Positions 34,943-42,816 of a stretch of 64,000 nt of DNA are shown piece after piece. The notes beneath the pieces are model-generated. The model searched no databases. It was given only the letters and a program-made list of their open reading frames with translations, and was not told the DNA's origin. The stretch is from Curvularia clavata. Taxonomy: Eukaryota. The stretch covers positions 124,001 through 188,000 of the forward strand of contig CP089277.1 of assembly GCA_023920165.1 (NCBI GenBank). The letters are read 5' to 3'. Position numbers and translations under genes: made by a program. Positions within the stretch are counted from its first letter, which is position 1, and the number at the start of each line of letters is the position of its first letter.

Positions 34943-36536
34943 TCAGCGTTGCATGCGCCAGAAACAAAATGGAGGAAAGAAAGATAACCAACTCTTCAAG
35001 CTAGAAAACCAATCTGTGTGAGGATCTCCATTCTGATGGCCCACAACCAGTTGAGGAAATGGATTTTTCTTTACTGCATCCTCGACCTCTTCATAAGCAT
35101 CGTAGCCGTATAGCCATGGCTGTACTTGAGGGCAGGTCCAGCCACTTGGAAAAGGTCCTTCAAGGTCTTTACCGAGTTGTGAGAGGAACAATGCATCTCT
35201 GGCTTCTTGATCAGCTCCATCAGGCATATGGAATGCTTCTCGCTATCATTGAATTAGCTCTAAGTCATACGCATGGTGTGTGTAAGTTGGTGTATTACCT
35301 GCTTGAACGTCTCTCGCACTATTGATTCGCCTCGACTTTTCCGCAGGCTCTCATAGGTCTCGAGAGCATATCGTACATGCTCCTTAGACTCGATGTGTCC
35401 CAGCAGCAGGCCCAACACCGTTCCGTCTTCGATAGCTGAGTTTGCTCCTTGCGCAAGATACGGCAACATGGGATGGCACGCATCACCTCTTCGACATATC
35501 AGCGAGACTCTAAGCACAACAAAAACGCTAAGTACTTACAAGAAAACCAGGTTGGACTCGTCGTTAACCCAGGATTCCATCTCTTCCCCTGAAGAATGTC
35601 AGATTACTGCTTACATGCATGGTCTGAACTTGGCTTACTATGCATCAACTTCCACTTATCTACATTGTCAACAAGGTCCAGAAACCGAGCTAAGATTGGG
35701 TCCCAGCCATTAAAAAGGGACTTCATTTCTTCAACAGATCCAGGTTGACGGCTGACGCCAGCAGGGAGGTCGTCAGGTACAAGGAGTACGATGTTGTACA
35801 TGTTGCCGCCTCGAAGGGAATATCCTACAGCATGCGCGCCTGGCCCGATCCAGAAATGGCAAGTCGGCTCAGATACCCATTGTCGCAGCTCTGGGTCCTG
35901 AATTTGTTTAAGATCCAACACAACGCGATAGGCCAAATCGCCAGTGGGTTTGGGAGGATCAACACGACCCAGAAGTTTTGCCCGACAGCGCGACCACAAG
36001 CCGTCAGCAGCAACTATGAGGTCAGCGTCGAAGCGGGATCCTTGCTCTGTTAAGACAACAGGGCGAGCGAGTTGGAACTCCATCTCTGCGATTCGTGACC
36101 CAAACTTGAACTGCACACCTAGTTCTTTTGCCCGTTCATACAACGCTAATTGAAGATCGCATCGGTGCATGTCTAGGAATGGGGCGCCATATCGCTGGCG
36201 GATTCTGGCTGAGAAAACATCGTCGTGGGCAAGTATTGAACCCGTGTATCTGTGGACTGTCAAAGAGGTCGGCTCTGCGCCAGAAGACCAGAAGTTGTCA
36301 CTGAGGCCATAATTTTGGAGGATTTTGGTACAATTTGGGGTCAATTGCAGCCCAGCACCGACTTCAGCCAGCTCTTTTGCGGCCTCGAATACAGTGACGT
36401 TGTGACCAGATTGTACAATGGAAATTGCTGCTGCTAGGCCGCCAAGTCCAGCGCCAACAATGGCGATGTCTAGGTGTACATGGGACTGGCGCTGGGACGC
36501 TGCGCTTGATATGGGAGCCATATGATGGTTTGACAT
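34943..36536 (-). CDS. FAD-dependent monooxygenase, salicylate-hydroxylase family
   Basis: GAGLGG, EVGAGLQLTPN, AADG, GDACHPMLPYLAQGANSAIED, HMPDGADQEARD. Several introns; the C-terminal end is approximate. Confidence 0.92.
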
Positions 36537-36684
36537 GCTACGTACCAGCAATCGGTGGTATGAAAAGGGCACTTGGGTAGTGCGGTTAACTCTGGGGTCA
36601 TCGCCAAATGCACTCTCTGACCCATCTCCATATTCCCCATATAGCCTGCGCGCGAGGGCGCGATCGATGGTGAGATCCGCTTGT

Positions 36685-36741
36685 CGGTACGACCGCGGAA
36701 TTTCCGGGAATGCCAGATGCAGGGTTGACCCGGCATTTCCG
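36685..36741. promoter_or_regulatory. Three CGG-N5-CCG sites in the divergent FMO/mini-protein promoter
   Basis: CGGTACGACCG (36685), CGGAATTTCCG (36696), CGGCATTTCCG (36731). Confidence 0.75.
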
Positions 36742-36966
36742 GATCTTCGCTCGACCGATCCTCAACGCCATTACCCCATTGCCATTCGAAGGTGGTCTTG
36801 TCACATCACTCACGACCCTGCCGGAACTATTTTGCGTAGTGACATATATTGCCATATAGGGTAATGTGTTCGTTAAAATTCCAGCAAATCCTCATTCCTT
36901 AACATTACGTCGACACGCTTCTCGTAGCAACAGCTGAAGCAATTGTATACGCTTAGTCTAGCCACT

Positions 36967-37421
36967 ATGGCTCCAAAAGGCCCTTTCAAGCTTGTGACCG
37001 TGAATAATGCTCCTGAGAGAGCAAAGGTTCTTATTGGTCGTGTTGTGGAGGCGTTGAAGGATGATTATACGATTGAATACGTAGCAAATTGCGTCAGTAA
37101 GGGAACCACTCTGCACTGCGTACGTAAGCAAATATTGACTGATTCGTGCAGGCAAAGACCAGGTTGCAAGCAGTGTGCAGGAGCACCGACCAGACATCTT
37201 AGTAAGTGAGCTTCAAATCCGTGATTGACAATGCCCTACTTATCTTCCCAAAGTTCTCAGCATCGATGTGGACAGCAGATGATGTCGCAGAGATCCAACG
37301 AACGGCGAGATCAATCAAACCAGACATAAAGCTACACGCGATTCCTTTTGGGTTACAGATAGAAAAAGGTCCAGAGGCTATTGTGGAACATCTATTGGAG
37401 CAGATACCCCAAATGCTGTAG
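36967..37421 (+). CDS. Small hypothetical protein (115 aa), receiver/flavodoxin-like pattern
   Basis: Exons 36967-37096, 37152-37201 and 37254-37421 join in frame: MAPKGPFKLVTVNNAPERAK...EHRPDILFSASMW...IKPDIKLHAIP... Confidence 0.82.
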
Positions 37422-40137: not shown

Positions 40138-41231
40138 TCATCTCTCGTTCTCGAAACTATTAAACAAAGTTCCAATGTGTGGAAGAATTTCTACCGCAAA
40201 CTCGTCGCCCTCTTTCAGTGTTACTTTGGGATTGCAGCTAGTGCCTACGCCGGCTGGTGTTCCGGTTATGATGACAGTACCCGCTGGAAGCGTTGTGCCT
40301 TGCGACAAAAAGCTAACTAGCTTGCTCACGCTGAATATGAGGTCACTGTTTAGTCAGTATCGGATCGAACCAACGAATTCACAGCTTCCAACACGTACTC
40401 GGTGCCGCAGTCCTGTTTTACCTCGCCGTTTTTGAAGCCACGGATATGGAGAGTGGATGGATCCGGAATTAGGGATTTTGACACGATCGTTGGCCCTGAC
40501 GCGATTAGGTCAACATGCGTCTCTGGAAATCCACTTGTTCCTTACCGATCGGACATGAACCGTCAAATCCCTTGGAAAAGCACCATTGCGTTTGAGCAAA
40601 CTGGCTTTCTCTGCTCGAAATATCGTTACACGCTGTATAACCGAGTACATAATCGAGGGCTTCTTCTTCAGATACATTTTTACAGGTTTTACCTAGCACT
40701 ACTGCTAGTTCTGACTCGTAGTCGCCAGAGTCAGTTTCCTGCGTGAGCCTCGGTAGCACTGTAGGTGCCGGCCATGGATCTGCAAGGGCTATATTCGGCT
40801 TTCTTCAATCACTTAGGACGGTGGAGGCGAGAATGTTGGATTCGAATAGACTTACAAAAAGACGGTGGGTACAGTGGGGAGGCTCACGCGGAGCTCCTTA
40901 GCATGCTGAATATACTAATACCCGTTCAGTGTCTGATGCAAATACCACATCATCCAGCTAGCTGGCTCACATTGAGACCGACACAACGAATGGTCCCTAC
41001 TTCGGTGTTGGCAACTGGCGAAAGTAGTCGACCAATGACCTCGCGTTGATGCGTCTTGGTTCCAGGGGAGAGTACCGATGTCCCAGACCACAGAAGGGTG
41101 GAAACCGACAGGCCTTTCCGAACAGCAACTCCAACGTCGATGCTATCTGATTCCGGTTCTCCGATACATACCCTGGATGCATCGGAAGCTGGTACAAAAC
41201 GCACGAGTCTCGTGAACGATGGACATGTCAT
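40138..41231 (-). CDS. Fumarylacetoacetate-hydrolase (FAH) family protein
   Basis: FTRLVRF, IRCVGLN, DYESELAVVLGK, YTACNDISSR, SKGFDGSCPIG, VIITGTPAGVG. Multiple introns. Confidence 0.93.
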
Positions 41232-41402
41232 CCTGAGGTGTGGTGGTGATGCCGTTCTTAACATTTGGTTAAAACGTACGCGCTATGAGTTCAGCACATG
41301 CCTTTTTACTTCATACTGCATCTTAAATTGTGTAGCGATTCTCGGATGTAGTAACCTATAAGATGGTCCGGGCAAACCTAGGTCAACTAGTCCTAGTTGC
41401 CG

Positions 41403-41413
41403 CGGAAAAGCCG
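41403..41413. promoter_or_regulatory. CGG-N5-CCG site in the divergent FAH/DUF3500 promoter
   Basis: CGGAAAAGCCG. Confidence 0.72.
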
Positions 41414-41544
41414 GCTTCGGTGCACCCAAGCAGGATGATCCGATTTCGCCTCGTACAGCTAAGACCATGAGAAATGGAATTTTGTGATACAAAAGTAGCG
41501 AGTCAATCTGAGATGTATAGGCCTCTTCATCATGATATCGAGCC

Positions 41545-42816
41545 ATGGCGGAGAATGACCAATCCTTTCGACAATTCTTACCGGACCTAACACAACCACG
41601 ATTCGCAACTTTGCAAACGCAAGATGCCCACGAATACGCATCAGCTTTTAAAGAGAATGCTGAACCACCATGGGTCTATGCGTTGTGGCGTCATTGGAGG
41701 CAGCTATTCGAAGAGCCATTCCGAGGAATAACGAATGATGGCGTGGTTCGGCCTGGTCTCTTTCCACTACAAGACGAGGGTGTACCTGTTGCCCATGTAG
41801 CAAGTGTCGCTCATTGTCTACTATCATTATTGGACGATTCTCAGAAGCAACGCGTTGTTCATCACATTGATTCACCTGAGTGGCGCTCATGGTCGAATCC
41901 AGAGTTTCTCCTGAGCGATAAGGGCATCCGACTTGATGAGGTGGCTTTGGATATACGCGACGCCGCCTTGAAGTTACTAGAACACACATTATCACCCGAG
42001 GGATATCAGAAAGCTGTGGGAGCGATGCGTATCAATGGGTTTCTTGGTCGCCTCGTAAACGCACCGCGCATATGTAACGAGTTTTCGTACAACTTGGCAC
42101 TATTTGGAACACCATCAGCCATTGCGCCTTGGGGCTTCTCATTCTACGGTCACCACCTTTGCCTCAACATTCTACTCTATAAAAACCAAATAGTCATATC
42201 TCCCTGCTTTACTGGAGCTGAACCCAACGTCATCGACGATCCGTGTGACTCCTACGCCGGCACGCGCATTCTGCAAGAAGAGGAACGTCTTGGTCTGAAG
42301 CTCATGCAATCACTATCATCGCAACTGCAAGACAATGCACAGGTTTACAAGCTGCTTCACGACCCATCCATGCCACATGGGCGCTGGAATCATGACGACC
42401 AGCGCCATTTGTGTGGCGCCTATCGAGATAATCGTGTGGTGCCATATGAAGGTGTCAAGGTCACCGATATGAGCAACACTGCTCAGCAGCTCGTCACCTC
42501 AATACTTTCCGAATTTCTCCTGTACCTTCCAAGCAAAGCTCGCAGGATGCGCTTGAAGCAAGCCGAATCCTGGTACCATGAAACATATTTTTGCTGGATT
42601 GGCGGGTATGACAAAGACGATGCCTTTTACTATCGCATACAAAGTCCAGTCATTGTTGTCGAGTTTGACCATCATTCGGGGGTGTTTTTGAATAATAAAA
42701 CTCCTGCGAAGTTTCACATCCACACCATTTTACGAACACCCAATGGTGGGGATTATGGTATGGCTATCCGGCCATCGATGGAAAGCATGTCACAACGATT
42801 CGTTTGGGAGAAATAA
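41545..42816 (+). CDS. DUF3500-family protein (His-rich, probable metalloenzyme/dioxygenase)
   Basis: WSNP, LSPEGY, FGTPS..PWGFSFYGHHLCLN, YYRIQSPVIVVEFDHH, HIHTILRTPNGGDYG. Intronless 423 aa. Confidence 0.85.
   Translation: MAENDQSFRQFLPDLTQPRFATLQTQDAHEYASAFKENAEPPWVYALWRHWRQLFEEPFRGITNDGVVRPGLFPLQDEGVPVAHVASVAHCLLSLLDDSQKQRVVHHIDSPEWRSWSNPEFLLSDKGIRLDEVALDIRDAALKLLEHTLSPEGYQKAVGAMRINGFLGRLVNAPRICNEFSYNLALFGTPSAIAPWGFSFYGHHLCLNILLYKNQIVISPCFTGAEPNVIDDPCDSYAGTRILQEEERLGLKLMQSLSSQLQDNAQVYKLLHDPSMPHGRWNHDDQRHLCGAYRDNRVVPYEGVKVTDMSNTAQQLVTSILSEFLLYLPSKARRMRLKQAESWYHETYFCWIGGYDKDDAFYYRIQSPVIVVEFDHHSGVFLNNKTPAKFHIHTILRTPNGGDYGMAIRPSMESMSQRFVWEK

Follow-up and report, generated by a model that had tools for sequence, protein, structure and literature searches.

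A Curvularia clavata gene cluster that may link flavonol glycoside breakdown to the tetrahydroxybenzene pathway

Introduction

The closest described relatives of the gene cluster analyzed here are the fungal clusters of the 1,2,3,5-tetrahydroxybenzene (THB) pathway, which has four genes, encoding a monooxygenase, a DUF3500 protein, a short protein with no recognized domain, and a FAH-like hydrolase (Martins et al. 2024, Microb Biotechnol 17:e14371, PMC10832562; bioRxiv 10.1101/2023.06.06.543907). The subject of this study is a 64-kb stretch of DNA of Curvularia clavata (C4:124001-188000 in a genome of 32.4 Mb in 8 contigs; hereafter the window), where homologues of all four genes are located next to genes for a quercetinase-like cupin, an esterase, a sugar porter and two glycosidases. 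We consider it fairly probable that these genes are regulated together and that their products break down flavonol glycosides in the cytoplasm, in a pathway which would feed the THB central pathway through enzyme activities that are here assigned by homology.

In Aspergillus nidulans, the loss of the DUF3500 protein, the short protein or the FAH protein impaired growth on both gallate and 2,4,6-trihydroxybenzoate, and the DUF3500 mutant accumulated THB from either acid; THB autoxidises, and it was detected only when ascorbate was present (10.1101/2023.06.06.543907). The short-protein mutant accumulated a lactone, named 5-hydroxydienelactone, and the FAH mutant gave acetopyruvate among other products (10.1101/2023.06.06.543907). 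The gallate monooxygenase mutant still grew on 2,4,6-trihydroxybenzoate, and therefore another flavoprotein monooxygenase (FMO) must serve that acid; the growth of THB mutants on phloroglucinol was unaffected, and therefore the acid derived from the flavonoid A-ring does not simply decarboxylate first (10.1101/2023.06.06.543907). The fungal fate of 2,4,6-trihydroxybenzoate is better defined by these data than was assumed in a preliminary description of the C. clavata locus, which proposed a route from this acid via THB to DUF3500 and FAH. This route matches the A. nidulans knockouts in outline, but lacks the short-protein step. Because the DUF3500 mutant accumulates THB from 2,4,6-trihydroxybenzoate, its core idea was already in print, and the link it drew between DUF3500 and gallate catabolism was correct (10.1101/2023.06.06.543907).

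Three types of THB clusters were described, each named after its FMO (10.1101/2023.06.06.543907). The ATEG_08220 type contains, besides the four gene families, a Zn2Cys6 factor and a major facilitator superfamily (MFS) transporter, and Table S5 (PMC10832562 supplement) places a quercetin 2,3-dioxygenase-like gene, as well as Zn2Cys6, MFS and DUF3500 genes, beside ATEG_08220 in A. terreus. The accessible part of PMC10832562 gives no substrate for ATEG_08220, and its text mentions neither quercetin, flavonoids nor rutin, although its Figure 3, which was out of reach, may draw the cupin in the clusters. Quercetin is likewise not mentioned in the preprint of Gluck-Thaler and Slot. No report joining quercetinase, a gene cluster and trihydroxybenzoate in fungi was found in the literature searched, with subscription papers and figures out of reach.

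In the classical rutin pathway, a secreted copper quercetinase of Aspergillus or Penicillium acts together with a rutinase and an esterase. Up to the two ring acids, its reactions come in the same order as those proposed here, as far as can be told from the accessible parts of PMC4462102 and PMC8120277, the latter a review that lists secreted quercetinases. Unlike in the classical pathway, the C. clavata cupin resembles Bacillus QdoI and Verticillium VdQase, the genes lie in a cluster that also covers the A-ring, and hydrophobic leaders were found by crude hydropathy in none of the eight proteins checked, with no obvious signal peptide seen in the cupin or in the GH3 protein.

Results and Discussion

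The four THB pathway genes of C. clavata

Gene models were built and their exons were scanned against Pfam, while splice joints were taken from contigs of four public runs (of 13 listed, from three studies), for which the RNA status is the guess of the tool used; 15 of 20 joints were listed. The data showed that the gene of a group A FMO of the ATEG_08220/AN7684 type (34943..36536, minus strand, 478 aa, FAD_binding_3) consists of four exons (36536-35639, 35588-35540, 35488-35299 and 35242-34943) with no internal stop, and that its three introns are all spliced joints in 4/4 runs. The DUF3500 protein (41545..42816, plus strand, 423 aa, PF12006 with E 4e-118 as its only Pfam match) is encoded by a single exon, while the FAH-superfamily protein (40138..41231, minus strand, 293 aa, PF01557) has a model with five exons, the splicing of which is predicted only, because its introns were absent among the 15 of 20 joints listed. 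These two genes are divergent, with start codons 313 nt apart. Two genes of this segment had been overlooked: the short protein (36967..37421, plus strand, 115 aa), with three exons (36967-37096, 37152-37201 and 37254-37421) and both introns spliced in 4/4 runs, and a Zn(2)Cys(6) transcription factor (37790..40134, plus strand, PF00172), the likely cluster activator, with five spliced joints in the run contigs. The FMO, DUF3500 and FAH genes are real and intact, as the preliminary description had it, and they are in part transcribed and spliced.

The assignment of these genes to the THB pathway was based on comparisons with the published proteins and primers. The FMO is 65.9% identical to ATEG_08220 over 425 aa, which makes it one of the three core THB monooxygenase types, and the primer peptide of AN7684 matches it at 5/6; the FMO of Bipolaris oryzae (86%) is among its closest named relatives, and the closest are from Pleosporales. 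The primer peptides of ATEG_08221-22 and AN10530 match the DUF3500 protein at 5/6 each, and those of ATEG_04856 and AN12484 match the FAH protein at 5/6 each, with peptides compared rather than full ATEG_04856. The short protein has no Pfam match in the two exons scanned, but belongs to the ATEG_04855/AN0331 family, which acts on the lactone; the AN0331 primer peptide, which was compared in place of full AN0331, matches at 5/6, and Ser64 is present as in Martins et al. Judged by homology, the cluster is a member of the published THB cluster type. Unlike in the clusters of Martins et al., the four THB genes are here joined to genes of an esterase, a cupin, a sugar porter, GH3 and GH78.

Two observations touch on the parts of these genes. 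The FMO ends in a tail of ~35 residues (34943-35045), rich in Trp and Phe, which most relatives do not have, although Paraphaeosphaeria has a similar one, and RNA contigs cross it without a joint. At 40863-40929 a plus-strand GT..AG joint was present in 4/4 runs, and the contigs run through the FAH introns without splicing. This suggests read-through of the regulator gene, antisense over the FAH gene; the stops of the two genes are 4 nt apart.

The upstream genes and the link to flavonols

The cupin gene (29476..30581, minus strand, 351 aa) encodes a bicupin, and its intron 30278-30229 was spliced in 2/4 runs. Its best matches in the PDB are the Bacillus and Streptomyces quercetinases (E 5e-14 for Bacillus quercetin 2,3-dioxygenase). 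The first cupin domain contains H64, H66 and H105, while the second is without the motif. The relative from Verticillium, P0307, has 72% identity and the N-terminus encoded by the VdQase primer, and hence the C. clavata cupin is a likely orthologue of VdQase, mutants of which use less rutin and quercetin according to the accessible part of PMC4462102. The esterase gene (30954..32032, plus strand, 323 aa predicted from Pfam and the gene model) is divergent from the cupin gene and encodes an HSL/BD-FAE-type enzyme with HGG and GxSxG motifs, a candidate depside hydrolase; no introns of it were seen among the joints listed in the four runs. The sugar porter of the MFS (32580..34284, plus strand, PF00083) is a candidate for glycoside or sugar uptake. 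The GH3 beta-glucosidase with a PA14 domain (43265..45806, plus strand, Pfam) has one intron seen as a spliced joint, and the GH78 alpha-L-rhamnosidase (24743..27490, plus strand, 915 aa, Pfam) is the weakest member of the cluster. The esterase, sugar porter and rhamnosidase genes were covered sparsely or not at all in the 4 of 13 runs, which says nothing on their expression.

To compare the gene context, 80 metagenome DUF3500 loci of fungi were used, ten of which have an FMO match (eight of the type present here and two of the gallate type). The data showed that the cupin or the esterase was present in 6/8 loci with this FMO type, while it was found in 0/2 loci of the gallate type and 0/70 loci without an FMO match. 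Homologues of the Zn2Cys6 regulator occur in 5/8 loci with this FMO type. Esterase orthologues of 56-58% identity are present in the loci L025, L030 and L060, GH3 orthologues adjoin DUF3500 in L025 and L030, and the sugar porter has weak matches in the same two loci. The rhamnosidase had no match in any fungal locus, where the 10-kb flanks would mostly not reach it. Near-consecutive gene numbers of the cupin and the FMO were also noted in Paraphaeosphaeria, Plectosphaerella, Apiospora, Bipolaris oryzae, a Pleosporales species and Pestalotiopsis, and DUF3500 lies close to these two genes in two of the six named genera. Among the 120 matches listed for each protein, contigs of equal length were shared in 9 cases between DUF3500 and the FMO, in 7 between DUF3500 and the cupin and in 12 between the FMO and the cupin, which was taken as no more than a lead.

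Several observations speak against a straightforward assignment of the cupin and its neighbors to flavonol breakdown. Asp71 of the cupin is at the position of the Glu ligand of Bacillus QdoI, and H64, H66 and D71 are present in 55/55 full-length relatives; the match to the copper fungal quercetinase is weak (E 0.07). The VdQase data in the accessible part of PMC4462102 come from crude extract and an insertion in a 3.8-kb region, and are soft because the gene model, of 1047 residues, is fused to C2H2 and homeobox domains. The eight loci with this FMO type are not independent, as they contain three near-identical pairs, the FMO of L057 is partial, and many of the loci without FMO are short. The features of the cupin and of VdQase, together with a rhamnosidase linkage seen here alone, could suggest that the upstream genes act on another phloroglucinol-type compound (a flavanone, dihydrochalcone or depside) or are mere neighbors, and that the cupin is not a flavonol dioxygenase. 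We regard this as quite improbable, given that the best cupin matches are all quercetinases, that the linkage of cupin, FMO and DUF3500 recurs in distant ascomycetes, that flavonol chemistry accounts well for the esterase, the glycosidases and the product of the A-ring, and that the genes share a promoter motif.

A shared promoter element

The upstream regions of the cluster contain the sequence CGG-N5-CCG, and CGG repeats are bound by Zn2Cys6 factors. These candidate Zn2Cys6 sites start at 24574, 30809, 30833, 32337, 36685, 36696, 36731, 37734, 41403, 43160 and 43179 (span 24574..43189). The 11 matches fall in 2,902 nt and occur in 7/7 upstream regions from the rhamnosidase to GH3, while 13 other spacers (range 0-13) gave 0-3 matches, in at most two upstream regions. 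The background was 30 matches in 212,049 nt of other sequence from the same genome, and the whole window contains 19 matches versus 8.6 +/- 2.7 in shuffles. The element is also located upstream of the orthologues in L025, L030, L057 and L060, and none was found in the 1.4-kb intergenic region of a second DUF3500 locus of C. clavata, on contig C3.

The weight of this result is reduced by the fact that the motif was picked after viewing these regions, because of which a Poisson value of 1e-12 overstates its significance. Moreover, the element is also present between the FMO and DUF3500 genes of the gallate-type locus L077 and several times in L088, while it is not clearly present in L037 and L041. 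The genes, their homology, their linkage and the shared motif are features observed in the cluster itself, and the motif, with a function predicted from its sequence, points to co-regulation of the cluster.

The substrate of the monooxygenase

The C3 locus (G000:C3:3064509-3068652, L007) is a two-gene locus of the gallate type, in which the second DUF3500 gene of the genome lies beside a PhyA-type FMO gene. A frameshift suspected in this DUF3500 paralogue was rejected, as the junction reads as a GT..AG intron. In the 65 kb around it there is no match to the cupin, the esterase, the short protein, FAH or the regulator; L007 may depend on the short protein of the C4 cluster, because this is the only copy found in the genome and none is near L007. 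The primer peptides of AN4576/ATEG_05726b match the C3 paralogue FMO at 6, 5, 5 and 3 of 6 and the cluster FMO at 3, 3, 2 and 3 of 6, which argues against orthology of the latter. The two FMOs are 33% identical and differ at positions 120, 227, 228, 250 and 252, and in a tree, where some other paralogues were flagged for long branches, the ATEG_08220 and gallate types part at 100/99. Contig C8 encodes a further FMO with 54% identity to that of the cluster (G000:C8:1810159-1815005, L092 and L198) with an FAH gene ~4 kb off, which may be another aromatic catabolic locus.

Among described enzymes, PhyA (NRRL3_4659, AN4576, ATEG_05726b) and PcMNX1/GsMNX1 have the same group A fold, catalytic His and carboxylate-binding Gln/Tyr as the cluster FMO, and Pro at the position of 3HB6H Gln301. 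Unlike PhyA, the cluster FMO is only 33% identical to the PhyA-type enzyme of its own genome and is placed in a separate clade. Its PDB matches are the para-hydroxybenzoate 1-hydroxylases 8GSM (E 4e-67) and 8X38 (E 2e-53), followed by the salicylate hydroxylase 6BZ5 (E 5e-19), so that decarboxylating para-hydroxybenzoate hydroxylases are nearer relatives, by a wide margin, than the salicylate hydroxylase type proposed earlier. Residues Q64, H235, Y239 and P325 align with PcMNX1 Q79, H247, Y251 and P337 (a manual mapping from the alignment to 8X38, in which the numbering is offset by 3 residues), which are residues that matter in PcMNX1 according to the accessible part of PMC13559804.

These comparisons do not all favor an A-ring acid as the substrate. 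The same four residues are likewise present in the gallate-type FMO, and therefore they support the chemistry and not the substrate. The substrates of its nearest solved relatives (4-hydroxybenzoate, vanillate or syringate) are like B-ring acids, and ATEG_08220 is induced on gallate (log2 fold change 4.0, or 16-fold), from a low base (Table S5, PMC10832562 supplement). Alternatively, then, the FMO could act on a B-ring acid (protocatechuate, 4-hydroxybenzoate, or gallate from myricetin), while another enzyme would make THB from the A-ring acid. This is rather unlikely, since B-ring acids could be handled by the separate gallate-type FMO and the several intradiol dioxygenases (PF00775) of the genome, linked THB genes would not be required for hydroxyquinol or hydroquinone, and the unaffected growth of THB mutants on phloroglucinol excludes a simple prior decarboxylation of the A-ring acid. 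In A. terreus, expression of ATEG_08220 on gallate is weak, at 6.7 transcripts per million versus 4786 for the gallate enzyme (Table S5, PMC10832562 supplement), which is in favor of a substrate other than gallate. Because the type of this FMO travels with the cupin and esterase genes, and the promoters share CGG-N5-CCG, it is the best candidate for the A-ring acid enzyme; from this genomic context, we think it likely that it is a 2,4,6-trihydroxybenzoate 1-monooxygenase (decarboxylating).

The DUF3500 protein as a candidate ring-cleaving enzyme

The DUF3500 protein is a candidate for the cleavage of the THB ring. No intradiol or LigB dioxygenase is encoded in the window, in agreement with the previous description of the cluster: the 10 matches to PF00775 (intradiol) and 3 to PF02900 (LigB) in the genome are all outside the window, and no VOC match was found in it. 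It has also been observed that a deletion screen of 17 dioxygenases in A. niger left gallate use unblocked (PMC12388069, accessible part). By our own stoichiometry, four electrons are removed when THB is converted to C6H4O5, and one O2-using step explains this.

To understand which residues could contribute to such a reaction, 120 fungal, 81 bacterial and 149 distant sequences were compared. The stable core consists of W116, H203, H204, E226, D295, E373, D375, H391, H393, R397, D403 and Y404, and H203, H204, H391, H393, E373 and D375 are near-invariant even in relatives below 40% identity. The GHH (202-204), DHH (375-377) and HIH (391-393) motifs noted earlier are all present; DHH as a ligand motif was partly rejected, as among the relatives below 40% identity H376 is kept in 46/62 and H377 in only 21/62. 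Judged by the secondary structure of an AlphaFold2 model (pLDDT 86, pTM 0.89), the conserved residues are located on neighboring strand ends. The His cluster may thus be a metal or acid-base site, which by itself does not name the reaction.

The only match of the DUF3500 protein by sequence, profile, Foldseek and VIA-align is PDB 9X86 (E 5e-19; Z 19.9, root mean square deviation 3.0 over 254 residues, TM 0.83 on target; next Z 3.3), entitled 'dehydratase ApmL in amipurimycin biosynthesis'. It is alone above Z 5 among 48,161 chains, and no classical ring dioxygenase folds are listed, which does not exclude them. No literature on ApmL/Amc20 was found, and its activity is known only from the PDB title. 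The fold and the His/Glu/Asp/Arg core are the same in both proteins: the dehydratase-titled ApmL keeps H203, H204, E373, D375, H391, H393 and R397. This is detrimental to the view that the His motifs indicate ring opening, as they are no proof of dioxygenase activity. On the other hand, ApmL is 22-26% identical, belongs to nucleoside-antibiotic biosynthesis, and is without the 80-residue N-terminal arm; it has no counterparts of E226 and H376, and most of the loop at 280-295 is absent.

The likeness to ApmL could mean that the DUF3500 protein is a metal-assisted dehydratase or cyclase rather than an oxygenase, which drives lactone formation from an oxidised THB product (a quinone or muconate) arising by autoxidation or through an unlinked enzyme. 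The sole structural match with its kept core is consistent with this, as is the composition of the lactone (THB + O2 - H2O), by which a dehydration is on the path, and the autoxidation of THB, which could be detected in the mutant only when ascorbate was present. Yet the DUF3500 mutant accumulates THB and not a ring-opened acid, the A. niger dioxygenase deletions left gallate use unblocked, and no classical ring dioxygenase was detected in 70/80 bacterial DUF3500 loci, so that together with the differences from ApmL listed above this explanation appears unlikely, although not negligible. Oxidative cleavage of the THB ring with O2 by the DUF3500 protein is in our view quite likely, an activity deduced from its homologues and their mutants.

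The bacterial context points in a similar direction. Of the 80 bacterial loci, 41 have a hydroxylase, 27 an FAH protein, dienelactone hydrolase or amidohydrolase, and at least 10 a classical ring dioxygenase, a lower bound, because LigB was probed with fungal queries only; the scan covered 94/118 open reading frame clusters occurring in at least three loci. Single fusions of DUF3500 with a ring hydroxylase (P0383) and with a dienelactone hydrolase (P0400), which may be gene-calling artefacts, place DUF3500 after the hydroxylase and before the dienelactone hydrolase. Among the neighbors in these loci (L113-L192) were also SDR (36/80), TctC (25), SnoaL/DUF4440 (21), FAD hydroxylase (19), FAH (19) and luciferase-like monooxygenase (14/80), and they could represent uncharacterised bacterial aromatic pathways.

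The lactone, the short protein and FAH

Of the 80 fungal loci, homologues of the short protein are present in 11/80, and FAH homologues adjoin DUF3500 in 9/80. The PDB relatives of the FAH protein include the acylpyruvase FAHD1 and diketo-acid hydrolases. One homologue of the short protein has an 18-residue in-frame intron, and its single-sequence model has a pLDDT of 40; our impression is of a flavodoxin- or receiver-like fold. The lactone may be 4-hydroxy-2-pyrone-6-carboxylate instead of a dienelactone, as its reported shifts presumably fit this pyrone. The Figure 7 legend of PMC10832562 gives for '5-hydroxydienelactone' doublets at 5.57 and 6.81 ppm with J 2.2 Hz, and 13C signals at 94, 107, 150, 160, 162 and 169; the accessible part of the article does not mention a pyrone. 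If the lactone is a 2-pyrone, the short protein would be a much smaller counterpart of LigI, the lactonase of pyrone-dicarboxylate.

A proposed pathway

Taken together, the order of reactions could be as follows, with every enzyme activity of these gene copies predicted from sequence. The rhamnosidase and GH3 would take off the sugars, the cupin would open the C-ring of the aglycone to give a depside, and the esterase would split it into a B-ring acid and 2,4,6-trihydroxybenzoate. The FMO would then swap the carboxyl for a hydroxyl group to form THB, by ipso attack of the flavin hydroperoxide with His235 as the base on the para-OH. The DUF3500 protein, which is probably a metal enzyme with a fold unlike that of classical ring dioxygenases, would convert THB and O2 to a muconate, which would close to the C6H4O5 lactone. 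The short protein with its Ser64 may open or activate this lactone, and the FAH protein may cut the resulting diketo acid at the acetopyruvate stage.

A bolder form of this proposal, which we put forward tentatively and would not bet on, is that the 21-kb locus forms one regulon, under single control and complete for the intracellular breakdown of flavonol glycosides, which supplies both the depside esterase and the 2,4,6-trihydroxybenzoate 1-monooxygenase of fungal rutin breakdown, and that DUF3500 represents a structural class that is new among ring-cleaving dioxygenases. The DUF3500 protein, sharing fold and metal site with a dehydratase, may under this regulon proposal also drive the closure of the lactone.

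Other features of the window

Between the rhamnosidase and cupin genes, spliced joints at 27920-27967 and 29113-29165 were present in 3/4 runs each where no gene was called, which suggests a small or non-coding transcript. A gene of the carotenoid/lignostilbene oxygenase family (14484-16127, PF03055) is located beside genes of a zinc dehydrogenase, an alpha/beta hydrolase, an SDR and a sugar porter (region 9265-16127). At a distance of 9 kb, this could be a second cluster for the catabolism of plant phenolics, in this case stilbenes. A 588-aa open reading frame on the minus strand (53644-55410) has no Pfam match, and its N-terminal half is cysteine-peptidase-like by eye.

Implications for flavonol breakdown and the DUF3500 family

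Flavonols are widespread among the compounds of plant defence and litter, and no assignment of genes to the second half of their breakdown by fungi was found in the literature searched. The cluster type itself is known, and what was not found in the literature searched, although Figure 3 of Martins et al. and subscription papers may already show part of it, is the flavonol context, the contrast between the two loci, the shared motif, the named monooxygenase candidate and the ApmL fold link, which complicates the dioxygenase claim for DUF3500. The DUF3500 family, which comprises 4,545 representatives when clustered at 50%, has a single solved structure, the label of which is conflicting. The cluster points to AN7684 of A. 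nidulans as a candidate for the missing step of the published pathway, suggests a gene for the depside esterase, and narrows down the residues with which mechanistic studies of DUF3500 could begin.

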